Origin: Candidatus Omnitrophota bacterium
GTDB lineage: Bacteria > Omnitrophota > Gorgyraeia > Gygaellales > Profunditerraquicolaceae
Direction of reading: 5' to 3'
Assembly: GCA_041662125.1 (NCBI GenBank)
Contig: JBAZTA010000002.1
Location: forward strand, 76,154 to 140,153
DNA: 64,000 nucleotides
Shown: positions 12,001 to 64,000 of the stretch, piece after piece
Layout of the letters: each line of letters starts with the position of its first letter
Position numbering within the stretch: the first letter of the stretch is position 1
Position numbers and translations under genes: made by a program
Notes under the pieces: model-generated
The model's input: only the letters and a program-made list of their open reading frames with translations
Told to the model about the DNA's origin: nothing
The model's database searches: none

Positions 12001-15000
12001 TGCTTTTGTGTTTCTCTGCGGCAAAGAAGGCCGGGATATTACTGATAGAAAAGGTGCCCAGGTGATCCTGGATGTACGAGCAGGATTGGGCAAAGAAGTG
12101 CAGGCTGTTGCCTTGCCCGAGGTAAGCAGATTTCTGGAAACCAGTAATGAGTTGGCTGTTCCTTTTAAGGGAGAACGGGCGAATGCCTTCGCTGAATTTG
12201 AAGAATTTATACAGGAAGAAACAGAAATTTTAAAAGAAAAGATTAAAACGTTTATCTGGGGTAAAAAAACAAACAAGATCAACAAAGAGGTCGTTTGGTT
12301 TCAGCATCGGATGTATAAGATCGCGACGATGCTTATTAATCATTTTGATAAATCAGGGTCGGTACTGGTTCAGTTGTTCCTGGACCAGTATGTCCCGGCG
12401 GATAAAGAGCAGGGCGGGTTAGAAGAAGCTATGCGGCAGTTTGGTTTAACCCATTGGATAATTAGATTTGATAATGGTTCTCAGAGGCCAACGTATGTTA
12501 CCCATGCGTTACGGCATCAGGTGAAGGAGTATAGCGAAGAAATAATAAGTTTTTGCAGGAGGAATTTGAAAGCGTATATGCCGCCTATTGGTGTTCCGCA
12601 GGCCCGCAATAATATTCTAACTTCAGAGGATCAAGCGTTCTTAAAGCATTTAGGGGTGGTTAATAATCAATCCAGGGGAAGTAATCCACCCGCAGCTGCT
12701 CGCGCGTCTTCGGCTGTTTCCGTTACTGCCGTGAACTTTCCATTATGCGGATACGTTGAGGAAGGCAGGATTTTGGCGGAAAAACGCCGTAGGGATATCG
12801 TCAACCCCCTGACTGCCGCACTTGACCTCTTAGAAAAAAGAAAAGTCTGGGGTAATCTTTTGCCGGCAGGGGCTAAGTTTAATTTTACCTACGCGTTTTC
12901 CAGAGAAAGCGATATTTTTGCCTTAAGCGCGCAATTCAAGAATGTGATAGTTTTGCCTTTAGAGGAACGCCATAATGCCAGCTTACTTTCATTTATTATT
13001 CGTCATTTTATTCACGGGAAATTCATCCGTGAGGAAATCTCTCTTGATGATAAAAAATCAAAAGTATATCGAGGAGACTTGATTTTTCTGTTGAAACTTC
13101 CTGATCAGGAGCGCGAAAATATCATGGCTTCTTTGCGGCGCTATGATTACCCGAATATGGATAGCTTTTTAGAATTAAAGGATGCTTTGGAACAAGAAGA
13201 CCTTTTACGGTTATTCGCGCTTGTATATAACGGGGGAGATATAAAGAATGGATGTGCTTTATCTATTGGTAGGAAGTTTCAGGCGCGTATATTTCAGTCG
13301 GTCATCCCGAAACTGACCAAACTTGGTGTTTCAAGGGGGAGGGTGTTGAGCCTTATCCTGGGCCTGGCGCGTGTGGCTCAGACAACTGAAGAATTCTGGA
13401 TGCTTTTAGAAGGGTTAGCCTCGATCCCCGATTGGGTAATATGTATCCCTGAAGGGAAAAAAGCTGACTTGGGTGTCTTTGTTACAAAAATGGACCAGCT
13501 GCTTTCAGAAGGAATATGGGCAATTCATTATAATCAAGCGGTATGTTGTAAAACACTCGTTGATTCGGTAAAGGAAACCCTCGAACATTTTTGGGAATTC
13601 AAAGATTTTCAGGATGAAGCGCCTAATTATCATGCAAAGAGCCGGGAGAACTATTACGCAGACCACCTGTGTATGTTAAAAGGGTTCTTGGGCCAGATTT
13701 CCGGGGTGCATAAGTTTACTTTTGTATTTAAGGATACCATTGATGTGCTTTATTTTAAGGACCATCCTTTAGGCTTGGAAGCAGTGAACCCTGTGTATAT
13801 CGCCTGCGGCGATAAAAAAGAATGCGACGGACAGGGATGCGGCTGTAAAACGATATTTGAATTTAAATATTCAGCCCGTATGGAACATCTTGCCCGGCAA
13901 ATAACCGGTTATAAGACGAGAGTTTCAGTTTTTGGGCTGATCAGCAGCGCGCAGGAAAAGTTTATGAGACAGGAGAAATTAACCAGGGATGAAGAGATAT
14001 TAAGGCAGATTAAGAATATCGTATTTTTTGCTGAGTATGACGGAGGCGGGTTGATTGCAAAACTTAATCATTTTGTTAGGCAGTATTATCACAAACGAGA
14101 CCCGTTCAAAGATAATAAGCGCTTGTGCGAGCGTAAATCCTGGAATGAGGGCGGCTTTACCGTCCGTTTCACCTTGGGAGAATTTAAGATGTTCCTTAAA
14201 GAAAATGAAGTGCCTGCTTCTCATTTGAACTGGGCTTTTGACCGGCTCGGACAGCATTATCGTAATAAAGGATTTGATGTTTATATCAGTATCAGTAACC
14301 CCAAAGGGAATGAAGAAGAGAATGCTTCTTGCAAGGAAAATATCTCTCGGCGCAGGACAAGCTCGCCAATAAGTAACCAGGGGACTAACGAGCAATCAGT
14401 TTCGCTGAAAAAGGAGCCAATAACCGTTAAGTACGGAGAAAGGATATTAGTAGGACGCATGTGGCGAAGGGTGGTTACGCTGCGTTTTGGCCATGGCCGC
14501 GTAGGGCTCTTGGATGATATCTTGCAGGCTATCGGTGATAAAACTTTTGTGGGGTGGTTAGAATATTTGCATAATAAGCGGCCGAAAGAATTAAGTGTTT
14601 CATTGGAGACGGTAGAAAAAGATACTATGCGCGCGATCATTAAGGAGTTAAAGCGCGTTGAAGATTGGCAGGACGCCCAGCAAGACAGCCTGCCGCGGCA
14701 AAACTGGCTGATGAGGTTTACTATCCCGCATCAACCCGCGCAATTGTTGCGGATCACCCGGTTGCTTCGGGAGAGGGGCATTAATATCCAATCATTTATG
14801 ACGCCCACCTTTTCCCAATATCACCAGAATATGCGTTTTATTATGCAGTTAGGGATCCCTGGAAACTGCCCTTCTGACGTAGAGTCTGTTGTCCAAGAAC
14901 TCAAGAAACATCTTAGTGATATCCCCGATTTATCGATGCATCAGGCTGAACTGGTCGACTGGCTGGTGGAATATTTAACTAAAAAAATACCGGTTAATTT

Positions 15001-18000
15001 TAAAGAGGAAACTGTGCGCCGTTTCCGTGAGGCATTAAAGATCATAACCAGGCGTCACCTGGGTGAATCGAGAAAGAACAAAAAAGATTCATATATGATG
15101 CATCCGCTTGATGTGGCGATAATCGCGGCAAACCAATTTGGTATTCGCGACGAGGGTTTATTAGAGATGATTATTTTGGCGGCGCTGCTGCATGACACTA
15201 TCGAAGACGGCGATATCAGTGACGCAGAATTGCGCAAGAGATTTGGTGATGATATTTATGCGATTGTCAACTTGCTCACCAAACGCAAAGTTAACGGTAA
15301 AGCTGACGAAATCGCGTATCTGCGTCAACTCTGTGCTGCTGTTGGAGAATTAGGCTTTATTGCCAGGTTGATCAAGATCGCCGACCGTATTCATAATCTG
15401 CAAACTCTGGCTGGTGTTGAACATGATAAAGATTTTCATCAGAAAACCATGGTTTCGACACTTGCTGTTTTTATACCCGAGGTAATTGATACGCTTGATT
15501 TTTATGCTCTCGCTGACAAAGAGCATGAGCGCGTATTACGGCAGGCTAGAGGAGTTTTCGCGCAGCAGGTTATTGATACGGCAATAGAATTACATTTCTT
15601 GAATCGAAAAGGCGAAGTGAGCTTTAAGAATTTTAAAGAGTCCAGATTAAACGGCGAAACGGGAAAACGTCCGCGTTTAATCGGGAGGGATTTAAAGAAT
15701 CTGTTTAAACGTATGCAGCAATTGGCCTCTTCAATCAAGGCAAGTTCTAGCATCAGCGCAAATCCTGTTGCCTCCCCCATTACAGTTGAAGAAGTCAGGC
15801 GCCTGGTGCGGGAGCATTTGTTGCCGGTTACCGGCGCGCGGCATACCTTAAGCCATGGAGATGATGTTTCTGACCTTGCCGGGTATTTAGCTCAGCATTT
15901 AGGGTTAGCGGAGTGGGAATCGATGATACGGATTGCCAGCCAGCTGCATGATGTCGAGAAGATACATAATAGAGAAGTATTGATGCTGGTTAATTTCCCT
16001 GGCGATTTATCCATGAATCAGCGGTTATTTGTACAGAAATATCATACTACCCCTCCGTTTATGGGAGTTAAGGCAATGGGAATAGAATTAGCGCCTTTTG
16101 TAGAAACTCTGATCGAGTTTCATCACCGCCCTCAGATGTGTAATGGGAATAATGCTATAAATACGGCTGCGCTTTGCCTTTCGTTGGCAGATCTGATCTC
16201 AGCGATGAGCGCTCCCCGGCCTTATTTTTATGTGGGAGGCAATATTGAAGATAGTAACAGTATTCCTGCTTGGCTGCGTGGTTTCTTATCCGCCAAAAAT
16301 ATTGTATTGGAAGCGCGCGTCTGGGAAGCGATCGAAGATATGGTAGTTGATAAAAGAGCCCGGATCCAGCAGATCAACGGGCTGAAGGCTGATGCGGTCG
16401 CTGATACCGCTAAGAGTTGGTTTGTTTGCGGGCAGACCCAAGAGTGCCTTGACGCCCTTGCTGAACAGATCCAAGAGTCTCGTAATCAGCAGAGAATAAA
16501 CCGTTTGTTGACTATACTTGTTGATCCAGTTGTGTCTGCGGTTTTAAGTGATGGAGAAATGAGGGCGCTCTTTGCGAAAGTTTTGTCAGCAGCACATTCA
16601 AAAGGGGAGTTAGTAGTAAATCATATGAGTGTTTTAGCTGCAATCCCCGCAATTCCCCGCCAATTTAAACAAATCTATTCAGAGATCATTTCTCGTAGCT
16701 CCTCCTCACCGCTGGCGTATTTAACAGCGGCAAAAAAATTATTTACTATACCACTTACTATTTTATTTGTAATTCCTTTGACGCTGATTTTTATAATAGC
16801 GAGTATTTTACACGAGTATGTTCACCTTTTAATGGCTAAGATATTTGGCCTGGAGACAGGAAAGGTGAGATTATTTGTGGAAGATTCGAGTTCCAATGTA
16901 GAAGTCATGGTGCAGGGAGCAGAAAACTGGAAACTTGTTTTTATATATTTGGCTGGTCCAGCTATGGATTTATTTTTAGGGGCAGTCTTTTTATTCTTGA
17001 TCTACTTGAACGGTTTTTCCTGGGGATGGCTAAAGATTTATGTTAATGTTGCACTTTTATCAGCAGCGGGGCTTCAAATACAGTCAGTAATTAATAGTCT
17101 TAACCCCAAATATAGCACAGATGAAGGCCTCAAGAGCGACGGTTATTTAGCTTTGGAGTGTATAAGAAATATTAAGGCAGGCAATAAATTTTACGATGGT
17201 GATAATTTTGATAGCTCCTCGCCGCTGACTCATTTCAATTTATCTGAGTTTGCGGATAAGCTATTAAGAAGAATGCGTGGGAAATATATACGAGGGTATA
17301 GGTATTTCTATGAGATTGCAGAAGATAGCCGTAAATGCGGTGCTTTGTGGGTCAATGATTGTAGGGTGGATGCGAATATTGGTAAGGGTGTATATGATTT
17401 TGTTTTTCCCCACCCCTTTGACCAAAATCTTGTAGTAAGGATAAGCAAATCAATTGATCTCTGGCGCCCAGTTTCAAGGAAAAAAGAATTCCAGAGGTTC
17501 CAGCAGTTGGCACGGCTCGGCATCGGGCCGCAAGCCTTCGCCTGGTGGATGCGTGATCAATACTCTTTTATGCTTGTAGAAAGAGTACAGGGCAATTCGC
17601 TGGATAAAATTGTTCAGAAACGGCTTCTTACTCAAGGAGAAATTAACTTTCTTAAGAGACTTTTGGATGTTTTGATTGAAAATAGGATTTATATAAGCGA
17701 CTTTAAACCTGCTAACATTATGTTTACTTCAGAGAAGGCTGTTATCTGTGACGCAATGTGCGCTGAAAACGCCCTTGCAGATGATCGCGCTGCACTCGCA
17801 GAGCGCTATGTTCGTATGATGCGTCCGGATCCATGGATTGACGTTGATCCTGATTTCGAATTAGAGAGGTATTTGCTTTCTTCTTCGCCGCTGGGTGAAG
17901 AAAATAGAACCATCCCCTTTTCTAAAATTGCCTCTTTGAGAGAAAAGGGTTATATCAAGAGAGAAGAAGAAGTCAGATTTCTTGCGGCACAATTAAATTC

Positions 18001-60000: not shown

Positions 60001-63000
60001 GGTAGTAACGCTGGCTCAAGATTATCTTAAGAATAGAAAAATAGAACTGGAACAGCTCAAAGAGATCCAGTTTTCTTATGCCCTTTTAGATTGGTTTAAG
60101 GCTGCGCAAATCCTATCTCTTCGCAAAGGTGAGTTTGTTTCTCTGGCAGAGCGGGGGGATCTGGCGCTGGTTCTGCACCAGGTAAAGGTGCGCGTTATAG
60201 CTGCCTCATTACCGCGGCATCCGTGCGCATCATCCGCGCTTAAACAAAAGATAACTCCTGCGAAAGTATCTACGTTGTTTATTGTTGCTATCCTGCTTAC
60301 CGTAGTTAATGCCGTTGCAGTTGTCGTTGCCGCTCTCTTTGGAAGCGAGATGACCATTTATCTGGCATCATTGGTATCGAACATCATTATTGCTCCTTTT
60401 GCGGAAGAGATTTTATTCAGAAGAGTTATATTTAAAGGTTTATTGGTTGATCGGTATAAGGTCAGTACCGGGAAAAGCATTTTTATAAGCGCGGCTCTTT
60501 TCGCGGCGTATCATTTAATTATCCCGTTTTTTGCCGGAATCAGGTTTATACCTATTAAGCAATTTTTGTCCGGGGTCGTATATGCGTCTGTGTATGTTAG
60601 GACACGATCGTTACTGGCTATTATTATTCTTCATGCTGTCAGTAATATAGTTACCGAGACAGCTGTTTTGTTCGGATTTATCAATCAAATGCCTTTTTAT
60701 GCTACTGCCGTAATGTTGATCGCAAGCCTGATTTTATTCCCCCGTAGGCCTGTTAGAAAAGCTTTTTCGAGCGGTGATGAAAAAGAGAAACTCAAAGAAA
60801 AGAAAGGCAAAGTTCTTCAGGAGAAAAAAGGCGCCGCGGCAGAAGGCCGCAAAAAAGGTAAAAAGAATGCTGCTTCTCAGAAAAAATCCAGCTCAAGCGC
60901 GCTTGGGGAAACGAATAACGAAAATCTGACTTTTGAATGGGGCAAAGACCGAATAGGGCAGTATTATTGGGACGCAGGATGTATCTCTATTTATGCTACG
61001 GAACAATTATTTGTGCTTAAACTTTTTGAGAATCCTTTGACACTGCGTTTTACGTTATTGATCGATAAAGCCAAAAAAGAGACTTTGATCTTATACGGCC
61101 CGCAAATTCCATTATTCTTCTGGGAAAGAGATAGTGAGGAGCGCCAGCAGCGTTATCAGCATAGGGATGAACCGTCTCTGGCAGTTAAATTCTTTCCAAA
61201 ATACCGGGAATTGCAGATCAGGGTTAATGAAGAGGTTTTCCAAGATTTATTGAGTCAGAATTTCCCGCTTTCAGGAACCTTTCCGGTAACTATGGAGAAC
61301 GGACTGCATTGGAGATTTGTGGAACACTTTACCCCGCTATTTTCTGTCCCTCCCGGGCATAGTAATAGGATCCATATTACTGTTGCGGGTATTGTAAGGG
61401 TATATTTGGAACAAAATGCCGATACCCAAGCAATTAAAAATATCCCGGAAGTATTGCGGCAACAATATATGTATAATTTTAATAGCTTGATAGAGCTGCT
61501 TGGTTTGCTGGTGGGGTATCCTGTTAAATACCTCAAGCGATACTCGGGGCTTTCAGCTTGCGGCGCATTGCATGAGTCTGGCGATTCCTTTGTTGAAGTT
61601 CTCGAAGGTCTTTTTGACGATTTTTTAAGGATTATTCCGGTAACCTATGATGAACATAAGAAGCGGCTTGTTTACAATGTTGCCTATCCTTTAGAGGGGA
61701 ATATTCTTCTTACTAAAACTCAAATTACGGACAGTATGATGAATTATCCTGTACCTTACGGAAAAAAGGTCGCGGTTTTTGAGATGTCAGATGGCGATCA
61801 TTTAGCTTTTGCGGGAAACTTTGTCAGCTCCCTTCAGGAAGAAAATGAGGTTAGGATTTTTACCAGTGGACAGCTTCCTTTAGAGCAGGTGACAGGAGAT
61901 TATGAACCTGATGTTATTCTGGTTCCGTATTGCCCGGATGCCAGAAGGCTGGTACGTCAGTATTCCTCTGTTAGGCCGCGTGAGTTGATGGCGTTCTATT
62001 ATGCTTCCCTGGAATTACCTCTTGAGTTTAATCTCGTCTTTTCTTTTGGTGAAGAAACCGCAGGAAAAGTTGTGGAAGCTGTTGGCGCGCATAAGTCACA
62101 GCAGGAACGCAGAGATTACAAAAGTTTTACCCGGTTTATCATGCAATATACGGGCGCTTTAGCCGGTTACTACGGTTTCACGCAGAAAAAAGATGCTTAT
62201 GCTCACGCCTTTAGTGTTACTCGCATAGAAAAAGGAAAAGTTTTGCCGGTTGATCTTTCAAAACGGTATGCGCTGGCATTTGAAAAAGAAAAACCGCATG
62301 CTGGGTTTACTCCTGTTAGGATAAATAATAATACTTATGTAAGAGCTTCTCCTCCTCATCCTGATGATATAGAAATCGCCGTAGGGGGTTTGATGGCGCA
62401 GCTTGCTCAAAAAGGGATAGAGGTCACAAACTTGATCTTTAGCAGCGGTGAGCGCGGCGTAGTCTTGAGTGAGGCGCAGGAGAAAAAAGGTTTAACCGGT
62501 GCCGAGATCCGCCGTGAAGAATTATGTAATGCCACAAAAATCTTAGCTCCCGGCGGAATGGTGAAGAACATTCATTTGGATTATGACTATACCTACGCAC
62601 GAGATCCGGAGGGGACACAAGAACAGTTGTATGCACTGGAAAAGGAATTATTAAAACAGCGTTCTTCCGGTAGAAATATCCCAGAAGTGGTTTTATTTAT
62701 TCCTCATCCTCGTGACGATAATAAAACCCATAGAATATTTGCCCGGCTTTTAGAGCAGGTGTGGGGCCGGTTATCTCAAGAGCATACTATTACTGTTACG
62801 GTCATTTATTACTTGGCGCCATCAGCCGGGAAGTATAACACTTTTTTCCCGACGACATATAATGTTTTGCCGCAGAGCGCTGATAATGTTCAGATGTTGA
62901 AAAAGGTTAAGTCCGTTGAGCCGTTTAAGCGGGCAATTTCTATTATTATCCCCTCGCGGACAGGCCTTTCAGCCCAGCAAGGCCCGCACCAGATGGAATT

Positions 63001-64000
63001 CGGCGAGTTTGGGGAGAGATTTTTCCGGGAGAGTTATAAAGACGGGAAATTAGTAGTTCAGAGCATAGCGCAGCCCAAGAGAAGCGCCTCTCCGCGGGGG
63101 GACGTACTGACCCTTCCCCTGTTAGCTGGATTAATCGCTCCTTTCGATTATAAACAATTTTACCTTTACAATGAGGCATTAAATAATCATCTGTCTTCTT
63201 TCTTTTTTACCTATGAGTGGCTTATTAAAGCAGGGGTATTTTCCTTAATTTTTATTCCTGCGGGATACGTTATTTATAGGTACATTTCGTATATAAAGAA
63301 AATATCATTGAAAAAACTTCCGCCGTATTTTTATCAGTCTTTAAAGACAGCAATCTTAAATAAATTCATGCTCTGTAATCTTGCCGTGTATGGCATTGGT
63401 TTGTACCTTGCTGATCAAATTGTGGGAGCCCCAGAGTATGTTATAAAAATCTGCCCTCTCAGCAATGCTTTATTATTCATATACATAGCAATGTCAATAT
63501 TAATTTACAAAATATCTTTGGAGTCAATTTTTAGTATAGATGCAAAGATTAATCAGTATTTAATTGAATTAAAGAGAATCAGGAAAACAAAAGATAATGA
63601 TAGAAGAAATAAAAATGTCCCCATTTCTCCTTCTGTTTCAAGTTCTCCTATAGAAGAGATACCTGCGGTATTGCGCAATGTAGCGAAAATATTGCAACCG
63701 CTCTTAAAACCTGATGAAGATTTCTATTTTAACGGAGGCATCGTCAGGGATTTGCTGTTAGGGAAGTTGTTGGATATTCGCGATATAGATATTATTATTG
63801 TTACCCAGGCCAATAGCCGCGTACAAGAGATAATAGATGAATTAAAGGCTCAGGGGTTGGAGAGAGACGGTTGTATCATGATGGATGGGGTTATTTTAGA
63901 TATAGGCAGTAATGAAGATGGTAAAGGTAATATTCACAGGCATGGTGATGGGGTTATCGCTTGTTTTACCCGTATGCTCGGTAGGCCCGTGTTGGTTAAA
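2..64000 (+). CDS. Internal fragment of a giant multi-domain ORF, at least 21,333 codons, 5' and 3' ends outside the window. Mosaic of enzyme-like, regulator-like and transmembrane modules.
   Basis: Codon phase starting at nt 2 shows no stop in any of about 30 regions I translated by hand (e.g. 2-1900, 9002-9060, 15062-15240, 17222-17760, 26162-26440, 28982-29090, 29702-30780, 39782-40324, 42002-42060, 46202-46320, 57902-58300, 58502-59100, 62342-62460, 63962-64000). The ORF track lists + strand ORFs only in the other two phases and none in this phase, although an in-frame ATG sits at nt 17. That is expected only if no in-frame stop exists in the window. Codon-like composition is uniform, and diverged paralogous modules stay in the same frame. 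Confidence 0.85.
95..109 (+). repeat. First copy of the recurring inter-module linker A-S-S-P-L (gcg tca tcg ccg ctg).
   Basis: The same [S/A]SP[LIMV] peptide, frequently encoded by the identical nucleotide string tcgccgctg, recurs in frame at about 25 further positions (listed in findings). Confidence 0.6.
110..331 (+). other. Cluster of hydrophobic, transmembrane-like helices.
   Basis: Translation VRVFGLTAALLCLPAFVFA and VFPVILGFVQQHYFFIVLASGIAYAYFVIY has the length and hydrophobicity of TM helices. More TM-like helices lie at about 1030-1220 (MSFAWLVYLMMQ, IMIALSPILLTWAVYLIAI). Confidence 0.4.
4322..4570 (+). other. HEAT/PBS-lyase-like repeat block.
   Basis: GIKIRLAVAMALGRKFNKVTGPEIIKLLYTEESNPYVVSQIAEVLGVIRYRPALALLEALK fits the V-R-x-A-A-x-x-A-L-G consensus spacing of HEAT-like repeats. 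Confidence 0.3.
7682..7813 (+). other. Helix-turn-helix-like motif, one of about three in 7400-8170.
   Basis: TLSAVAQELKMSRGNLQKFLRR resembles a Fis/XRE-type HTH. Nearby are LAVVLGKDPSSVSRGL and KKLAQRFGVAEITILRFF. Confidence 0.3.
9692..10300 (+). other. HEAT/ARM-like alpha-solenoid repeats.
   Basis: Repeating units such as DPRMRAYAYRIIGAIG, LRMLLLIGQQEG and PQAVVLCLIKSYTDDPSMIPVIDKIL recur with a 30-40 aa period. Confidence 0.35.
11027..11515 (+). repeat. Copy 1 of a conserved domain of unknown function (signature GH-x-VI-x-G ... FFFK ... EF ... TGE-x-I-x-VH ... IGG-x-RP ... MES-x-LDE).
   Basis: GHIVILGQVPQSGELKIGRKWARLDASLYGLSNYLLEMNNGIPVRMFFFKTHTALEFLPAVNNKTGGIEVVHMGQIF...LGDLSIGGGRPHSD...GLVWRLTSLESDLDRAYLRIM aligns with copies at 47465 and 49259. 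Confidence 0.5.
14696..14902 (+). other. ACT-like small regulatory domain upstream of the HD domain.
   Basis: LMRFTIPHQPAQLLRITRLLRERGINIQSFMTPTFSQYHQNMRFIMQLGIP has a beta-alpha-beta ACT-like pattern. Sequence-weak. Confidence 0.25.
15062..15469 (+). other. RelA/SpoT-type HD domain, like a (p)ppGpp hydrolase or Mesh1-type small alarmone hydrolase.
   Basis: MMHPLDVAIIAANQFGIRDEGLLEMIILAALLHDTIEDGDIS...FGDDIYAIVNLLTK...IAYLRQL...IARLIKIADRIHNLQTLAG matches the SpoT HD signatures HP-x-x-VA, AALLHD-x-IEDT and LIKLADRLHNMRTL. Confidence 0.75.
15842..16162 (+). other. Second HD-type metal-dependent phosphohydrolase domain.
   Basis: HTLSHGDDVSDLAGYLAQHLGL...RIASQLHDVEKIHNREV...IEFHHRPQM has the H...HD...H...D spacing typical of HD domains. 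Confidence 0.4.
16742..17182 (+). other. Site-2 protease, peptidase M50B (SpoIVFB-like) intramembrane zinc-metalloprotease module.
   Basis: Hydrophobic helix FTIPLTILFVIPLTLIFIIASILHEYVHLLMAKIFGLETGKVRLF carries HExxH in a TM segment followed by G-x-x-V. Downstream FIYLAGPAMDLFLGAVFLF matches the AGP-x-x-N-x-x-L motif, and NSLNPKYSTDEGLKSDGY matches N-x-x-P-x-x-x-x-DG. Confidence 0.55.
17213..17227 (+). repeat. Linker S-S-S-P-L (agc tcc tcg ccg ctg).
   Basis: In-frame copy of the recurring linker, with the octamer tcgccgct conserved. Confidence 0.6.
17228..17878 (+). other. Minimal protein-kinase-like fold module (eukaryotic-like, RIO or Kdo-kinase-like).
   Basis: NLVVRISK matches the beta-3 Lys. 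EFQRFQQLARLG matches the alpha-C Glu. MLVERVQGNSL is a hinge. YISDFKPANIMF matches the catalytic loop HRDLKPANIL. VICDAM sits in the DFG position. The module is delimited by SSSPL linkers at both ends (17213-17227, 17879-17893). Confidence 0.5.
17981..19228 (+). repeat. PHP (polymerase and histidinol phosphatase) phosphoesterase module, paralog copy 1.
   Basis: VDLHTHTVESDGYSNPAAAILEAFERGMSGLAITDHNTF...IPGLEITTYFEGVVVHLLVYLPGYY...VAHTGSKLAIAHPNE carries the PHP His/Asp motifs. It aligns along its full length with 38111-39385 (about 40-50% identity by eye). Confidence 0.7.
19502..19900 (+). other. Class-I SAM-methyltransferase-like fold (weak).
   Basis: PLYVLDWGAGNLRAAVRLGKML...IIDSAPNLF...LLSPHGVIVFDVYG resembles motif I hh-D-x-G-x-G and a post-motif-II strand. 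Confidence 0.3.
20171..20500 (+). other. TM helix cluster with a second HExxH motif (HEWLH), a possible membrane metalloprotease-like module.
   Basis: IVSIFALMLILQV, LAIFITGVILTLLNFMSGLGANILPF and YLLVWVLNKYF are TM-like. LLIHEWLHAYQIILIYHAG holds an HExxH at 20466-20480. Confidence 0.3.
20732..20743 (+). repeat. Linker S-S-P-L (tcc tcg ccg ctg).
   Basis: In-frame recurring linker. Translation is TNPVSSPLTVTDGF. Confidence 0.6.
20744..21601 (+). other. Alpha/beta-hydrolase-fold-like module (weak).
   Basis: VVISVHGLGCV (HG-x-G start), MVESYGAAVFVEW (nucleophile-elbow-like) and YVTGGDHYAAMTNPAVV (C-terminal His region) appear in the order expected for an alpha/beta hydrolase. Confidence 0.3.
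21611..21619 (+). repeat. Linker (A)-S-P-L (tcg ccg ctg).
   Basis: Translation is SAASPLALQD. Confidence 0.6.
23462..23473 (+). repeat. Linker S-S-P-L (tcc tcg ccg cta).
   Basis: Translation is EHASSPLEKV. Confidence 0.6.
24200..24799 (+). other. Nucleotidyltransferase head domain of the poly(A) polymerase or tRNA CCA-adding type, copy 1.
   Basis: EIIIAGGPVRDLLLGLRFNRGDNEAGIKDVDVIL matches the PolyA_pol head signature GG-x-VRD-x-LLG ... D-x-D. Confidence 0.65.
25085..25093 (+). repeat. Linker (SSSAA)-S-P-L (tcg ccg ctg).
   Basis: Translation is VSSSAASPLVLR. Confidence 0.6.
25196..25798 (+). repeat. Unknown-function module A (YYVNAG ... F-x-IHVVVTN ... GGFNGIMCNVGG ... GGWLQVDA).
   Basis: Aligns with module A-prime at 27173-27733: YYVNAGQEKDIEFLINTIAKYMG versus YYINAGHQPEITFLIESIADYMK, FEIHVVVTNVDPRG versus FKVHVVVTNIVPRR, GGFNGIMCNVGGD versus GGFNGILCNVGGA, GGWLQVDA versus DGWLQVDA. 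Both end in an [S/A]SPL linker. Confidence 0.55.
25802..25810 (+). repeat. Linker (A)-S-P-L (tcg ccg ctg).
   Basis: Translation is IGASPLAQRR. Confidence 0.6.
25811..26566 (+). other. Subtilase (peptidase S8)-like module with the catalytic Ser replaced by Cys.
   Basis: IIILDDFVID is an Asp-box-like stretch and VPHGILIEN is a His-box-like stretch. FVMCAGNGRQNSPGGY matches the Asn/oxyanion region AAGN. NVIPVAAAEISKTGYTKAYYSCFGPDVMFCADGSDSQNAQGTCIAAARISL parallels subtilisin SVIAVGA...SFSS-G-x-x-DV-x-APG...GTSMAAPHVAG, with GTC in place of GTS. Confidence 0.45.
27173..27733 (+). repeat. Module A-prime, paralog of 25196-25798.
   Basis: See module A. About 45% identity by eye. Followed by the SSSPL linker at 27734-27748. 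Confidence 0.55.
27749..29044 (+). other. Class-I SAM-dependent methyltransferase module, PrmA-like (ribosomal protein L11 MTase type).
   Basis: AERFRGARVLDLGCGRGISSLFAALLGAKTVVGVDNDP matches motif I plus the acidic post-I residue. LPFDIVMANIG matches the PrmA F-D-h-h-h-A-N-I motif. Core at 28190-28500. Confidence 0.7.
29045..29056 (+). repeat. Linker A-S-P-L (gcc tcg ccg ttg).
   Basis: Translation is KISAASPLASSIELLIFDLT. Confidence 0.6.
29057..29755 (+). other. HAD-superfamily hydrolase-like module (beta-phosphoglucomutase or phosphatase subfamily).
   Basis: IELLIFDLTQTL is a motif-I position reading D-L-T rather than D-x-D. YRLALATNNG matches motif II (S/T). KGKPDPGIFYELCKLQGVSPERAVSIGNSRQHDLEAAAQIGM matches motifs III-IV (K ... 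G-D-S-x-x-D, here GNS-x-x-D). Confidence 0.55.
29750..29764 (+). repeat. Linker S-A-S-P-L.
   Basis: agc gcc tcg ccg cta, in frame. Confidence 0.6.
30062..30745 (+). other. Sigma-70-family module (regions 2.1-2.4 and region 4) embedded in the giant ORF.
   Basis: AAREVLIVTNVPMVIYRVIRQY...DDLIQVGIYGRGDRVGGLARAVERFEPERGIRFISFALQWIDAVLLQAVRE parallels RpoD region 2 (LVEANLRLVVSIAKKY...[41 protein letters not shown]). LQLEISERDKDILSRLLDAEKQSYIANHYRIKPQRVQQIFKRLTKMLKE parallels region 4 (...[20 protein letters not shown]). Confidence 0.6.
30761..30775 (+). repeat. Linker S-A-S-P-L.
   Basis: agt gcc tcc ccg cta, in frame. Confidence 0.55.
31622..31792 (+). other. Phosphoribosyltransferase (type I PRTase, ComF/GntX-like) module with an atypical PRPP-binding loop.
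   Basis: VTDVDLRGKSVLLLDDAAAERNVHLACMERILRAGATQVFVVRIG follows the PRT pattern (hydrophobic strand, DD, loop, helix, GA..V) but reads DDAAAERN where the canonical motif is DD-x-x-TGGT. Confidence 0.35.
32195..32455 (+). other. Class-I methyltransferase-like module (PrmA-like core).
   Basis: MHVIDCGSGRAELSLAALRLNSSVDSIEIDS is motif I. REIAIVSNIGSWG matches the PrmA-like x-h-h-V-S/A-N-I motif. Bounded by TSPL (31817-31828) and SSPI (about 32672). Confidence 0.45.
35882..36136 (+). other. ACT domain-like module.
   Basis: FELSILAEDKPGLIALVISALSDSGISMFRLAPPQKESGLLSYEFIFQP...EADISKALSEIEGITYEVRLVP matches the ACT pattern (strand, G-x-h helix, strand; D/E-D-x-P-G-h-h). Confidence 0.45.
38111..39385 (+). 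repeat. PHP phosphoesterase module, paralog copy 2.
   Basis: GQIDLHTHTLLSDAYATPSAMVLKAYEEGLAGIAITDHDMF...IPGLEITTLFEGVEVHLLVYLPGY...VAQAGAKLAIAHPSE. Co-linear with copy 1 from the N-terminal SAARAIIEEVLG helix to the C-terminal tail. Ends at the ASPM linker. Confidence 0.7.
39782..40324 (+). other. TIM-barrel phosphate-binding module, ThiG (thiazole synthase)-like or IGPS-like.
   Basis: IQLIGECGIGEPEHVRQVLKMGCNGVLVNNAITQSADPIAAAVAFRDAV resembles the ThiG C-terminus (VDAGVGT-x-SDAA-x-AMELGCDAVLMNTAIA-x-A-x-DPV-x-MA-x-AF). Confidence 0.35.
41882..42040 (+). other. Transmembrane helix cluster.
   Basis: GGISTCLLMFGLFLSIFYAVAAYFESYNVLFVPLFIVWACRFYW. Two hydrophobic helices. Confidence 0.4.
44072..44596 (+). 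other. Phosphoribulokinase/uridine-kinase family P-loop kinase module (intact Walker A).
   Basis: PLYIVSVGGGAGVGKTTFVDRLKRAL is a Walker A of PRK/URK type. VQVIILDGLHV parallels the IIIEGLH motif. PIFMDTAVDVLKAWRFQQEW parallels FVDTD-x-DVRL-x-RRI-x-RD. Confidence 0.65.
45350..45700 (+). other. Possible GNAT acetyltransferase-like fold (weak).
   Basis: IYNIDIFPNMQREGIAKVILLKLFASCIEAERHLTIYDAGCADRIYNLVKYYF resembles GNAT motif A (Q/R-x-x-G-x-A ... h-x-h-x-V ... N ... A). Confidence 0.25.
47465..49258 (+). repeat. Tandem repeat unit 1 (about 1.79 kb, 598 aa): unknown domain copy 2 plus a charged helical tail.
   Basis: GHAVIAGTMPQGGSLSLGGYLFKFTQYGGVDYELEVEAGLLKRIFFMNDYSLVEFLSVLDRCTGEIIDLHCGKI...CQSMESEFDETFSLI...WINFGEEYSYRY...GELLAVFEKWSDK aligns residue-for-residue with unit 2, which begins 1794 nt downstream. 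Confidence 0.6.
49259..51100 (+). repeat. Tandem repeat unit 2: unknown domain copy 3 plus a coiled-coil-like tail.
   Basis: GHVVIRGVLKGNFALRIGEYSFGFRGYADSAYELEVDNGILRQIFFFKDHTLFEFFPIIDNHTGEVIDVHRGTI...CTSMESGLDEPFILI...WMDFGADCGYGF...GELIEVFERWSEN. About 35% identity to unit 1 by eye. Confidence 0.6.
50402..51250 (+). other. Charged coiled-coil-like segment.
   Basis: Runs such as LETEKIRVSGEKTIARRADTIRALIVEVNSLRQKIRRMDEKTAKLLEEDL and KEIRRKRLLSSREKELVRNLREDLRQANALASLEQL show heptad-like R/E/K/L periodicity. The - strand ORF 50725-51117 is its antisense shadow. Confidence 0.4.
52082..52399 (+). other. Pol-beta-superfamily nucleotidyltransferase module of GlnD/GlnE type.
   Basis: PFSVWMVGSMGYLGLARKGISDVNLLVLTE matches the h-G-S-x-G-R-G-E-L ... 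S-D-h-D-L-h-h-L catalytic motif of GlnD/GlnE-type NTases. Confidence 0.45.
54260..54730 (+). other. Uridine-kinase/PRK-like module with a degenerate P-loop (candidate pseudokinase).
   Basis: ADIKIFLECDEIERLQRIKDY and DADYVVDT parallel the uridine kinase C-terminal motifs. The Walker-A position reads AIIRITSRPGADEAEII, with no G-K-T/S. Confidence 0.3.
56228..56401 (+). other. Possible GHKL-ATPase N-box-like segment (weak).
   Basis: NYGEIHFALRDLLHNALVHGNHFKLSLPVFF resembles the E-x-x-x-N-A-x-x-H-G N-box of RsbW/SpoIIAB/histidine-kinase ATPases. Confidence 0.2.
57854..58330 (+). other. CheR-type protein-glutamate O-methyltransferase-like module.
   Basis: GEPLRMLCLGCEEGADAYMLAMELLESGW...VEITGVGINRFAIEIAQAGHF...LSEETVNKYF...YVINSRLKAMVSFQTANFLE...GGFDFILLNQMIDCF parallels CheR (LRIWSAACSTGEEPYSLAI-x-L ... 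I-x-ATDID ... A-x-x-G-x-Y ... YF ... V-x-F ... N-L-L ... FD-x-I-F-C-R-N-V-h-I-Y-F). Confidence 0.75.
58502..59134 (+). other. CoaB (phosphopantothenate-cysteine ligase; C-terminal Dfp/CoaBC domain) module, motifs intact.
   Basis: [54 protein letters not shown]...VIRVDVVTALEMKEAV...ISAAAVADYRP...LHNNPDIL...VVGFAAET...KNMDFICANRV...GFRSENNKVVII is co-linear with E. coli Dfp CoaB ([47 protein letters not shown] ... CAAVADYR ... KNPDIV ... VVGFAAET ... KNLDLICAND ... GFNSDNN). Confidence 0.85.
59282..59662 (+). repeat. Degenerate second CoaB-like half-domain, tandem to the intact one.
   Basis: KTILISAGSTEESIDGVRIVSRAVKFDLPYAIAAIARISGAKVVLISGPTHTPPPEGVRFIQVATAQEM keeps the CoaB fold signature, but the SSGK and AAVADY motifs are lost (SRAVKFDL, INLARPPF). 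Confidence 0.5.
60266..60760 (+). other. CPBP-family (CAAX protease/bacteriocin-processing, Abi) intramembrane metalloprotease module.
   Basis: Four hydrophobic helices carry the three CPBP motifs in order: APFAEEILFRRVIF (EExxxR), ISAALFAAYH (FxxxH) and IIILHAVSNIV (HxxxN). Confidence 0.8.
60761..60907 (+). repeat. Lys/Gly/Ala-rich low-complexity basic segment.
   Basis: SGDEKEKLKEKKGKVLQEKKGAAAEGRKKGKKNAASQKKSSSSALGE, immediately after the last CPBP helix. Confidence 0.5.
62342..62800 (+). other. PIG-L/LmbE-family deacetylase module (GlcNAc-deacetylase fold, like BshB/MshB).
   Basis: RASPPHPDDIEIAVGGLMAQLAQKGIEVTNLIFSSGERG matches the A-H-P-D-D-E-x-x-G-x-G-G-T-h-A ... H-x-V signature. Downstream IPHPRDDNKTHRI supplies the H-x-x-D-H-like metal ligands. 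Confidence 0.75.
63200..63499 (+). other. Transmembrane helix cluster.
   Basis: AGVFSLIFIPAGYVIYRYI, MLCNLAVYGIGLYLADQIV and NALLFIYIAMSILIYKI are TM-like. Confidence 0.35.
63701..64000 (+). other. Nucleotidyltransferase head domain (poly(A) polymerase or CCA type), copy 2, truncated by the window end.
   Basis: DEDFYFNGGIVRDLLLGKLLDIRDIDIIIVT matches GG-x-VRDLLLG ... D-I-D. Paralogous to 24272-24430. Confidence 0.6.

Follow-up and report, generated by a model that had tools for sequence, protein, structure and literature searches.

When a single reading frame holds dozens of unrelated enzymes, it may encode one enormous chain or many separate proteins, and for the giant proteins of Omnitrophota this is an explicitly open question. 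The question is raised here by 64,000 nt of DNA from Candidatus Omnitrophota bacterium (assembly GCA_041662125.1, contig JBAZTA010000002.1, positions 76,154 to 140,153), referred to as the window, in which the frame from base 2 contains no stop codon over the full length (21,333 codons). We found that a short peptide motif, [SA]SP[LIVM], recurs between the modules of this frame and only there, is conserved in orthologues, and marks the sites at which cassettes have been gained and lost. These junctions make the question directly testable. The window is an internal 64-kb piece of a longer Omnitrophota-type multi-enzyme gene. In our judgement, the chances are about even that the product of this gene is a polyprotein assembled from cassettes and cleaved at the junctions.

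The other five frames of the window contain between 848 and 1,855 stops. As the frame from base 2 is open across all 64,000 nt, the open reading frame (ORF) runs off both ends of the window. A preliminary description had placed the ORF at 14696–64000. The giant ORF was confirmed, but not its boundary, because position 14696 belongs to an in-frame CGG codon that is not a start, and about 4,900 further residues lie upstream of it, including a GlpX-like fructose-bisphosphatase module that had been missed. The GC skew is positive in every 2-kb interval (0.06–0.24), so that the coding strand is rich in G throughout, and codon usage is homogeneous across segments of the window. TRF detected no tandem array in the window, and long DNA repeats were likewise not found; the gene is therefore not a giant of the repeat type.

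A scan of GTDB genomes with the first 450 amino acids (aa) of the translation yielded three loci. L001, the locus nearest to the window, lies on a contig of 838 kb (JBAZKL010000001.1) of a Candidatus Omnitrophota metagenome-assembled genome (MAG) and has 76% aa identity. L002 (CAZPNW010000048.1) and L003 (CAZPNW010000065.1) are short contigs of one MAG labelled uncultured Planctomycetales, with 75–85% identity; since the closest long contig is from Omnitrophota, this label suggests mis-binning or mislabelling. Each of the three loci is open in one frame from end to end, and they are collinear with the window at 75–85% aa identity (blastp). In the orthologue, the frame thus begins 3,333 aa or more before the first base of the window. 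Codon alignments with the orthologues gave dN/dS ratios of 0.13–0.16 at dS values of 0.67–0.86, uniformly over the annotated parts and over the parts without recognised family ('dark' parts). The ORF is real and under purifying selection. One of the candidate explanations had been an artefact of assembly or separate genes joined in a frame-preserving chimera, and the unusual length is the single point in its favour. The 21,333 stop-free codons in one frame, the same order in contigs of two other MAGs, the uniform purifying selection, the homogeneous composition, the lack of repeats able to mislead an assembler, and the even longer ORFs in published long-read complete genomes all stand against it, and for practical purposes an artefact can be regarded as excluded.

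The junction motif [SA]SP[LIVM] occurs 31 times in the window, compared with 2.0 ± 1.2 copies expected from shuffled sequences. The stricter form [SA][SA]SP[LIVM] occurs 24 times, compared with 0.3 expected. Two control patterns were at chance, namely [^SA]SP[LIVM] (11 versus 11.5) and [SA]SP[^LIVM] (8 versus 5). A logo of 108 sites from the window and related proteins has a five-residue core, [S/A/T]-S-S-P-[L/V/I/M], with unconstrained flanks; for the explanation developed below the junction was defined as [S/A/T]-[S/A]-S-P-[L/V/I/M]. The junctions split the window into 32 segments of 161–1,845 aa (median 618). None of the 31 sites lies inside any of the 24 delimited module envelopes, which cover 22% of the length and leave about 78% outside (P ~ 5e-4). 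Between aa 4791 and 10893 the segments correspond approximately one-to-one to single modules, i.e. HD_4, HD, M50, kinase-like and PHP, followed after a gap by S8-like, PrmA, HAD, sigma and a methyltransferase. The gap consists of four segments, one with a marginal match to a second CCA-adding enzyme head and three without a recognised module. Junctions often sit where the N-terminus of a stand-alone protein would be: they precede profile position 1–2 of HAD and CoaB by 4–5 aa and position 1–3 of M50 and PolyA_pol by 23–24 aa, and the alignments of two PHP paralogues begin exactly at junctions.

Two other roles for the motif were considered and rejected. Separate translation of the units from an internal Shine-Dalgarno motif plus start codon would require such starts after junctions, but they were found at 5 of the 31 sites, compared with a background of 7.0 ± 2.3, and, as there is no enrichment, the units are not separately initiated. 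A sorting signal, in which the motif is followed by a transmembrane (TM) helix, fits only 3 of the 31 sites.

The comparison with the orthologues showed that the motif core is kept in seven of eight comparisons at orthologous positions, while the flanks diverge. The site at aa 3507 was missed by global alignment, yet it is conserved in L001; at aa 1562, L003 has lost the final aliphatic residue. The orthologues, about 75% identical, differ by the in-frame presence or absence of whole cassettes (~1,800, 310 and 337 aa), the edges of which lie at or adjoin junction motifs. The edges of the largest block, which includes the GlpX-like module, were found as breaks in blastp collinearity, and its left edge is a degenerate junction, KSSSAIS. 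At aa 33 the window has a single junction; at the same place L001 and L002 have a junction, a cassette of 280–337 aa and a second junction. The full motif stands on both sides of this cassette in L001 (AASPL ... AASPL; L001 8993–10015), and in L002 it is flanked by ASSP- ... SSSPL. A recent foreign origin of single cassettes was also considered; it is rejected, judging by the homogeneous codon usage and by the nearest relatives of the first CoaB module, which are ordinary CoaBC proteins of ~400 aa with only 43–49% identity.

The motif is not confined to this gene. Among other giant-protein fragments, 29 sites were found in 7,051 aa of P0039, 17 in 6,528 aa of P0014 and 10 in 7,085 aa of L001, and two further homologues of a dark module have 7 sites in 2,060 aa (P0017) and 6 sites in 1,177 aa (P0054). 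The genes neighbouring P0014 contain one site in 2,619 aa. A different punctuation was found in P0029 (L004 10001–24916, on a 233-kb contig of JGI 3300001199), a mosaic protein of 4,971 aa that is complete, includes PALP, glucosamine isomerase and HAD modules, and lies among ordinary chromosomal genes. Its junction, [ST]GARL[AS], is present in 20 copies versus 0.3 expected and is almost invariantly encoded as TCC GGC GCG CGG CTG GCG; the genes beside P0029 have no copy of this core in 6,244 aa. From these sequences, the wording of the punctuation seems to be lineage-specific and its kind general. As far as we found in the accessible parts of the literature, it has not been reported.

The junctions are unusual also at the level of codons. 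The Ser before Pro is encoded by TCG in 17 of 31 cases, compared with 12% gene-wide (p = 9e-9), the Pro by CCG in 20 of 31 (34% gene-wide), and the Leu by CTG in 10 of 18 (15% gene-wide); in S-P dipeptides outside junctions TCG accounts for 21%. The raised GC content at third codon positions is confined to 4–6 codons, and the background is regained within 1–2 codons, which led to the rejection of GC-biased gene conversion as its cause. An account by rare codons only was also rejected, as CCG, GGC, GCG and CGG are not rare. Similar preferences were found elsewhere (TCG at 12 of 17 sites in P0014, CCG at 21 of 29 sites in P0039), and synonymous sites between these lineages must be saturated. Within the window the preference is regional: TCG CCG CTG prevails in the first ~13,000 aa and AGT TCT CCT in the last ~7,000 aa, as in the last seven junctions. 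In nucleotide coordinates, one 'dialect', mostly (G/T)CC TCG CCG CTG, extends over 95–39394, and the other, mostly AGT TCT CCT, over 42833–63652, which may mean that junctions were copied locally or that the two halves of the gene have different histories.

These biases bear on the possibility that the junction is primarily a DNA or RNA element, for example a site of recombination, or one resembling Chi, at which cassettes are shuffled, or an ops-like site recognised by a processivity factor of the NusG family that a very long gene would need for its transcription, and that S-S-P-L is just its in-frame translation. Such an element would explain why GC- and CpG-rich codons are confined to 12–18 nt in four lineages despite saturated synonymous sites, why the window contains 15 copies of TCGCCGCT, 13 of which are on the coding strand, where 2.6 would be expected, and why cassettes are inserted and deleted at junctions; a NusG N-terminal module is encoded in the upstream part of the orthologue. 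However, many junctions use other codons, e.g. AGT TCT CCT in the window and the mixture of AGC, TCA and TCG in P0039, so that the peptide is better conserved than the DNA. In addition, 11 of the 13 plus-strand copies of TCGCCGCT are in the junction frame, and the two direct repeats on either side of the L001 cassette are not identical at synonymous sites. We therefore regard a primary nucleotide element as unlikely.

The reading to which we give even chances can be formulated as follows. The ORF is built from at least 32 gene-sized cassettes (161–1,845 aa, median ~620), each carrying one or a few modules, which are divergent, mostly catalytically intact paralogues of ordinary enzymes and regulators or dark modules specific to this family. 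The cassettes are joined in frame by the short junction, preferentially in CpG-containing codons (TCG CCG CTG). Translation of the ORF would yield a polyprotein, and the gene would act like an operon that lacks stop codons. Cleavage at the junctions or close to them, during or after translation, would then release individual enzymes and regulators of the cytoplasm together with a few membrane proteins. Candidate proteases encoded in cis are the weak S8-like Cys variant, the M50 module and the CPBP module. Cutting is predicted because the motif is sequence-specific and not just compositionally flexible, because a lineage-specific alternative motif exists, because junctions sit at natural N-termini, and because an intact chain would put cofactor-dependent enzymes on both sides of a membrane. 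The last argument is based on a crude prediction (Kyte-Doolittle, window 19, threshold >= 1.8), which yielded about 12 TM-like segments along the chain, the N-terminus of the gene being outside the window. If the chain stayed intact, single TM-like segments, such as those at aa 3179 and 13970, would distribute enzymes dependent on SAM, ATP and CTP over both sides. A processed polyprotein was among the candidates of the preliminary description, and the recurrent motif at module boundaries supports it indirectly.

Several points weigh against cleavage. A convincing dedicated protease was not found in the window; the S8-like module scores below threshold, has Cys in place of Ser and has no match in PDB. 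The modules CoaB1, CoaB2, CPBP and PIG-L follow each other without junctions between them, so that not all neighbouring modules are divided by the motif. Judging by the bias at nucleotide level, the constraint on junctions acts in part on something other than the peptide. In a published DeepTMHMM survey, 94% of such giant proteins were predicted to be membrane-associated, and they were read mostly as intact, membrane-anchored proteins. The cleavage itself is a prediction from sequence.

Some of these points would also fit an intact, membrane-tethered mega-scaffold or metabolon, in which the junctions serve as flexible hinges, as programmed translation-pause sites (Pro plus CpG codons) that let each unit fold before the next, or as both. 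The TM-like segments along the chain, the survey, the codon bias, which would suit a role in decoding or pausing, and the lack of a clear processing protease are in agreement with this view. A hinge, however, needs neither a specific sequence of 4–5 residues kept across distant lineages nor an alternative of the SGARLA type, and pausing is not easily reconciled with preferred codons that are not uniformly rare (CCG makes up 34% of Pro codons, and GGC, GCG and CGG are common in P0029). The inferred distribution of SAM-, ATP- and CTP-dependent enzymes over both membrane sides is a further difficulty, and we consider an intact scaffold somewhat unlikely.

The nature of the modules was analyzed by cutting the translation into 25 overlapping pieces of 1,000 aa, which were scanned against Pfam and NCBIfam, and by searching the whole translation against PDB sequences. 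At least 18 different Pfam families were found in the window, each at most twice. The proposed mosaic of enzymes and regulators of the stand-alone type was thereby borne out, with about 18 of the roughly 25 modules previously claimed receiving support. The claims that sigma-70 regions 2 and 4 are both present (TIGR02937, 1.9e-10, over profile positions 2–163 of 165) and that an intact CoaB is accompanied by a degenerate copy were upheld. In contrast, ACT (E = 0.025, located elsewhere than implied), the subtilase-like module and one of the two CCA/poly(A) heads (aa 8101–8181) were weak, and the other head (aa 21241–21290) had a weak profile match with the expected motifs; a GlnD/GlnE nucleotidyltransferase, a phosphoribosyltransferase and a second PRK were not detected in the profile scans. 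To call the modules ordinary housekeeping proteins was an overstatement. All score far below the NCBIfam equivalog cut-offs (e.g. 58 versus 259 for glpX, 52 versus 220 for udk and 38 versus 435 for CheR), and they are therefore divergent paralogues and not canonical housekeeping genes.

The retention of catalytic residues bears on another earlier candidate, a scaffold of pseudo-enzymes, in which the modules would be decayed relics that persist as binding or structural domains only. Some modules fit this description. CoaB2 is degenerate, lacks the NxSSGK and ADY motifs and gave a confident model only for its N-terminal Rossmann half; Asp+2 and the first Asp of motif IV are missing from the HAD module; Cys takes the place of Ser in the S8-like module; and the scores of all modules lie far below the equivalog cut-offs. 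The motifs are, however, intact in SpoT-HD, M50, PHP (the first four: HxH, DH, E, H), PrmA (motif I), ThiG (Lys), PRK (P-loop), CheR, CoaB1, CPBP, PIG-L and the poly(A) head. CoaB1, which has no CoaC half, keeps 34 of 34 columns that are invariant in 52 CoaBC homologues, and its AlphaFold2 (AF2) model has a pLDDT above 90. Together with a dN/dS of ~0.15, the catalytic motifs kept in most modules make a pure scaffold of pseudo-enzymes very unlikely.

The statement that the gene matches no known class of giant proteins is outdated, because giant ORFs of the multi-enzyme type have been described from Omnitrophota in two preprints. West-Roberts et al. 2023 (bioRxiv 10.1101/2023.11.21.568195) reported 'Archaeovorins' of up to 85,804 aa with methyltransferases, peptidases, NUDIX, FBPase and HEAT. 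Nielsen & Lui 2026 (bioRxiv 10.64898/2026.06.07.730766) reported 'multi-enzyme metabolic clusters' of up to 147,155 aa, in which Pfam module 1 comprises methyltransferases, HAD and HD regulators. In the accessible text of these preprints, the function of the giant proteins is given as unknown in both, the cleavage points are stated to be unknown in the former, and linkers, cleavage, motifs, polyproteins and sigma factors go unmentioned in the latter. The window is a member of these Archaeovorin-like giant ORFs. Like them, it has one ORF that is tens of thousands of codons long, relatives in Omnitrophota, mostly dark sequence, many Pfam families of which none dominates (methyltransferase, HAD, HD, FBPase, HEAT, peptidases), modules that have diverged from their families and no recent nucleotide tandem repeats; the TM-like segments of the crude scan may correspond to the scattered TM helices of the class. 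Its length exceeds the catalogue threshold of >=10,000 aa (21,333 codons plus at least 3,333 upstream in L001); the criterion of West-Roberts et al. is >30,000 aa, and the ends of the gene are outside the window. In contrast to the described members, the window has no SecA, C39, glycosyltransferase or dockerin content; a divergent SecA-DEAD domain and an N-terminal C39 or S8 peptidase domain are present in 'most' of them, and SecA and C39 were also not found in the 3,333 aa upstream in L001, the gene ends lying outside both regions. For S8, a weak match was obtained in the window. A junction or cleavage motif like that of the window was not found in the accessible text of either preprint.

Hallmarks of other giant proteins were not detected. 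The Pfam and NCBIfam scans of the window gave no domains of nonribosomal peptide synthetases (adenylation, condensation, thiolation) or polyketide synthases (ketosynthase, acyltransferase, acyl carrier protein), and the Pfam scans gave neither the Ig or cadherin matches of giant adhesins nor an RHS match that would indicate RHS/YD repeats. The multi-enzyme proteins AROM, CAD and FAS also fuse stand-alone bacterial-type enzymes in one chain, but they combine 3–7 consecutive steps of one pathway and the chain stays intact, whereas the modules of the window belong to unrelated pathways, include regulators and membrane proteases, and have a conserved junction between them. With viral polyproteins and with processed polyproteins of bacteria, e.g. 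gingipains, the window would share the production of several proteins from one stop-free ORF, and it has the recurrent short site between units (31 copies versus 2 expected, none inside modules). It differs from them in having at least 32 units and more than 21,000 aa, in being part of a cellular genome, and in consisting of units paralogous to cellular enzymes.

The nearest functional parallel is provided by MARTX toxins (Vibrio RtxA), which are likewise mosaics of unrelated enzymatic modules in one polypeptide, and their module composition varies between strains by recombination. Their effectors are connected by unstructured linkers and released by cleavage with an aliphatic residue at P1, to be compared with the recurrent [SA]SP[LVIM] between the modules here. 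The giant could thus be an exported delivery platform, the cassettes of which are translocated into a host or prey of episymbiotic or predatory Omnitrophota and released by cleavage at the junctions, where sigma factor, ppGpp hydrolase, RNases, kinases and methyltransferases would reprogramme the victim. The inter-unit linkers with an aliphatic residue do resemble the small-Leu-small sites in unstructured linkers at which MARTX effectors are released (PMC2900308). The exchange of cassettes between strains, the description of Omnitrophota as host-dependent or predatory, and modules that are regulatory or nucleotide-directed and not from one pathway would also be in line with effector delivery. 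However, MARTX toxins have at most ~5,200 aa, RTX repeats, an InsP6-activated cysteine protease domain, type I secretion and toxins aimed at eukaryotic targets. RTX/hemolysin-type repeats had no Pfam match in the whole window, the C-terminus of the gene being outside it, and Peptidase_C80, the InsP6-activated cysteine protease, had no match in the Pfam and NCBIfam scans of the window. RTX repeats, cysteine protease domain, secretion signal and translocation domain were found neither in the window nor in the 3,333 aa upstream in the orthologue, and the modules are related to ordinary cytoplasmic enzymes and not to known toxins. As the defining domains were not found, the likeness is one of analogy and not of membership, and an effector platform appears improbable.

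Returning to the polyprotein, we tentatively extend it beyond this gene, at less than even confidence. Giant multi-enzyme ORFs may generally be bacterial polyprotein 'super-operons' with dozens of independent proteins per stop-free frame. Their lineage-specific punctuation (SSSP[L/V/I] here, SGARLA elsewhere) would be dual-coded in a peptide and in a GC-rich element of 12–18 nt, and would serve as processing site and as the place of cassette insertion, deletion and shuffling. The junction motif provides concrete predictions of cut sites as well as a principled way to split giant proteins for structure prediction and annotation. If it were confirmed as a processing site, cellular polyproteins would exist on a scale that is known only, in miniature, from viruses. 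In that case one would have to ask, from modules such as sigma factor, NusG, ppGpp hydrolases, CoaB/CoaE and uridine kinase, whether these host-dependent bacteria hold in a single gene a part of their housekeeping or a toolkit for host takeover.

Features of the window, ordered by position (aa, residue numbers of the translation from base 2; for junctions, the first residue of the motif)
Feature	Position	Strand	Evidence or remark
Internal part of one continuous ORF, 21,333 codons	2..64000	+	0 stops; open orthologues; dN/dS
Junction SSPL (aa 33)	98..109	+	Extra cassette here in L001/L002
TM-like segment (aa 41-60)	122..181	+	Directly after first junction
TM-like segment (aa 380-402)	1139..1207	+	Kyte-Doolittle
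Junction ASPM (aa 870)	2609..2620	+	Conserved in L001, L003
~1,800-aa block with GlpX (aa 1036-2829)	3107..8488	+	In window and L003; absent in frame from L001
Junction ASPV (aa 1562)	4685..4696	+	
GlpX-like class II fructose-bisphosphatase (aa 1659-1890)	4976..5671	+	Pfam FBPase_glpX 2e-21; PDB 7js3/1ni9 1.5e-12; TIGR00330 9e-16
Junction SSPL (aa 3151)	9452..9463	+	Conserved in L001; window-specific cassette right after
~310-aa cassette (aa 3155-3470)	9464..10411	+	Absent from L001; begins directly after junction VSSPL
TM-like segment (aa 3179-3199)	9536..9598	+	Kyte-Doolittle
Junction SSPV (aa 3507)	10520..10531	+	Conserved in L001
Dark beta-repeat module copy A (aa 3618-4047)	10853..12142	+	Paralogue of copies B, C
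Junction SSPI (aa 4787)	14360..14371	+	Conserved in L001
SpoT/RelA-type (p)ppGpp-hydrolase HD domain (aa 5013-5150)	15038..15451	+	Pfam HD_4 1e-12; TIGR00691 3e-18; PDB Rel/SpoT/MESH1 matches down to 4e-11; HD, ED, DRxHN motifs
Junction ASPI (aa 5257)	15770..15781	+	Between HD_4 and HD units; conserved in L001, flanks diverged
Second HD domain (aa 5288-5402), weak	15863..16207	+	Pfam HD 4e-3; LHD motif
Junction SSPL (aa 5568)	16703..16714	+	23 aa before M50 profile start
M50/S2P-type membrane metalloprotease (aa 5594-5700)	16781..17101	+	Pfam Peptidase_M50 1e-5, M50B 2e-4; HEYVH (HExxH) and two hydrophobic helices
Junction SSPL (aa 5739)	17216..17227	+	Between M50 and kinase-like units
Kinase-like module (aa 5847-5920), weak	17540..17761	+	YrbL 1e-3, Pkinase 7e-3; LanL/LegK1 1-2e-3; catalytic loop SDFKPANI (D-x-K-P-x-N)
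Junction SSPL (aa 5961)	17882..17893	+	PHP-1 paralogue alignment start
PHP-1, RNase RNM/AM-like (aa 6055-6322)	18164..18967	+	Pfam PHP 7e-7; NF047791 2e-11; PDB 7ug9 3e-8; 45% identical to its paralogue PHP-2
Two TM-like segments (aa 6730-6750, 6770-6789)	20189..20368	+	Kyte-Doolittle
Junction SSPL (aa 6911)	20732..20743	+	
Junction ASPL (aa 7203)	21608..21619	+	
Junction SSPL (aa 7821)	23462..23473	+	
Possible second CCA/poly(A) polymerase head (aa 8101-8181, GGPVRD), weak	24302..24544	+	Pfam PolyA_pol E = 0.13 only
Junction ASPL (aa 8361)	25082..25093	+	
Unannotated module (aa 8394-8554)	25181..25663	+	Paralogue of aa 9052-9212, 45% identity
Junction ASPL (aa 8600)	25799..25810	+	Before S8-like unit
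Subtilase-like module (aa 8620-8810), weak	25859..26431	+	Pfam Peptidase_S8 1.5e-3 (below threshold); putative Asp, His, oxyanion Asn; GTCIAAA, with Cys, in place of the Ser motif
Unannotated module (aa 9052-9212)	27155..27637	+	Paralogue of aa 8394-8554
Junction SSPL (aa 9246)	27737..27748	+	Before PrmA-like unit
PrmA-like class-I methyltransferase (aa 9384-9482)	28151..28447	+	Pfam PrmA 3e-10; NF001790 2e-14; PDB 1ufk 1.6e-5; VLDLGCGRG
Junction ASPL (aa 9682)	29045..29056	+	4-5 aa before HAD profile position 2
HAD hydrolase (aa 9690-9874)	29069..29623	+	Pfam HAD_2 1e-13; Hydrolase 5e-13 (profile 2-191/191); TIGR02253 7e-20; nucleophile Asp kept; Asp+2 is Thr (DxTxT); motif IV GNS..HD
Junction ASPL (aa 9918)	29753..29764	+	Between HAD and sigma units
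Sigma-70 family module (aa 10036-10245)	30107..30736	+	TIGR02392 RpoH 4e-13; PDB RpoH/RpoS 2e-8; Pfam r2 2e-4
Junction ASPL (aa 10255)	30764..30775	+	After sigma unit
Second class-I methyltransferase (aa 10711-10788), weak	32132..32365	+	Pfam 2-3e-3; NCBIfam 2e-4; VIDCGSGRA
Junction SSPI (aa 10890)	32669..32680	+	
Junction SSPL (aa 11460)	34379..34390	+	
Junction SSPV (aa 12516)	37547..37558	+	
Junction SSPM (aa 12677)	38030..38041	+	PHP-2 paralogue alignment start
PHP-2 (aa 12763-13030)	38288..39091	+	Pfam PHP 6e-6; NF047791 5e-12
Junction ASPM (aa 13128)	39383..39394	+	Between PHP-2 and ThiG units
ThiG-like TIM-barrel (aa 13245-13430)	39734..40291	+	Pfam ThiG 4e-17; PDB 4n6e/2htm 1e-7; Lys at Schiff-base motif position (LKLE)
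TM-like segment (aa 13970-13994)	41909..41983	+	Kyte-Doolittle
Junction SSPV (aa 14278)	42833..42844	+	Before PRK unit
PRK/uridine-kinase (aa 14694-14882)	44081..44647	+	Pfam PRK 2e-11; TIGR00235 udk 5e-14; P-loop GGAGVGKT
Junction SSPL (aa 15095)	45284..45295	+	
Junction SSPL (aa 15713)	47138..47149	+	Before dark beta modules B, C
Dark beta-repeat module copy B (aa 15762-16260)	47285..48781	+	Paralogue of copies A, C
Dark beta-repeat module copy C (aa 16356-16873)	49067..50620	+	Paralogue of copies A, B
Junction SSPV (aa 17558)	52673..52684	+	
Junction SSPI (aa 17986)	53957..53968	+	
CheR-type methyltransferase (aa 19289-19450)	57866..58351	+	Pfam CheR 7e-20; NF007902 1.5e-9
Junction SSPL (aa 19499)	58496..58507	+	4 aa before CoaB profile position 1
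CoaB1, intact phosphopantothenate-cysteine ligase domain (aa 19506-19720)	58517..59161	+	Pfam DFP 3e-52; PDB 1u7u 6e-40
CoaB2, degenerate partial copy (aa 19757-19900)	59270..59701	+	39% identical to CoaB1 N-terminal part
CPBP (Rce1-like) intramembrane protease (aa 20084-20224)	60251..60673	+	Pfam 6e-16; EExxxR, FxxxH, HxxxN
PIG-L family deacetylase (aa 20785-20920)	62354..62761	+	Pfam 5e-13; PDB 8bgn 3e-3; BshB2 9e-7; HPDD
TM-like segment (aa 21150-21170)	63449..63511	+	Kyte-Doolittle
Junction SSPI (aa 21214)	63641..63652	+	24 aa before PolyA_pol profile position 1
CCA/poly(A) polymerase head (aa 21241-21290)	63722..63871	+	Pfam PolyA_pol 2e-3; GGIVRD...RDIDI (GGxVRD and DxD)

A self-comparison of the translation by blastp revealed only five sets of diverged paralogous modules. 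Twenty dark segments were searched against Pfam at E <= 1 without a credible family match. The beta-rich dark module of ~450–500 aa is present in three copies in the window. When 1.84e9 cluster representatives were searched with aa 15762–16960, only 55 homologues were found, and most belong to proteins of >1,000 aa. Those with a source name are mostly from Omnitrophota; one is annotated as a sigma-70 family protein, and one is labelled Aminicenantes. Homologues of the CoaB region are also named Omnitrophota. Copy B was modelled by AF2 with a pLDDT of 89; a match of its beta part to a solved structure was not found, and a Foldseek comparison of the module with the Rhs core was insignificant (E = 0.16, TM 0.09). 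A protein word-index search in a database nearly devoid of giant proteins gave no match with the first 450 aa and two listed matches with a 2,134-aa C-terminal query. Relatives were not found in scans of metagenome contigs with the C-terminal 450 aa and with the sigma region, and a scan of viral contigs with the dark module found nothing.

Homologous sigma modules are present in two other giant-protein fragments, P0003 and P0008. The upstream part of the orthologue (L001 1–10000) encodes a further HD_4, YcaO (1e-50), CoaE, a YkuD L,D-transpeptidase, HAD, the NusG N-terminal domain (1e-11) and a methyltransferase. With CoaE and CoaB, two steps of the CoA pathway are thus encoded in one gene, and with NusG and sigma-70 two transcription factors. 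The best NCBIfam matches of the CPBP module include proteases of the Mrt/myxosortase type (MrtS, MrtJ, Mrt_core) and not generic CAAX proteases; intramembrane proteases of this type process C-terminal sorting signals. Lastly, an antisense ORF of 218 aa lies inside the giant gene on the minus strand (23959–24615). The stretch around it has the strongest purine skew (GC skew 0.24, AT skew 0.09) and is depleted of antisense stops, and the ORF probably arose by chance.

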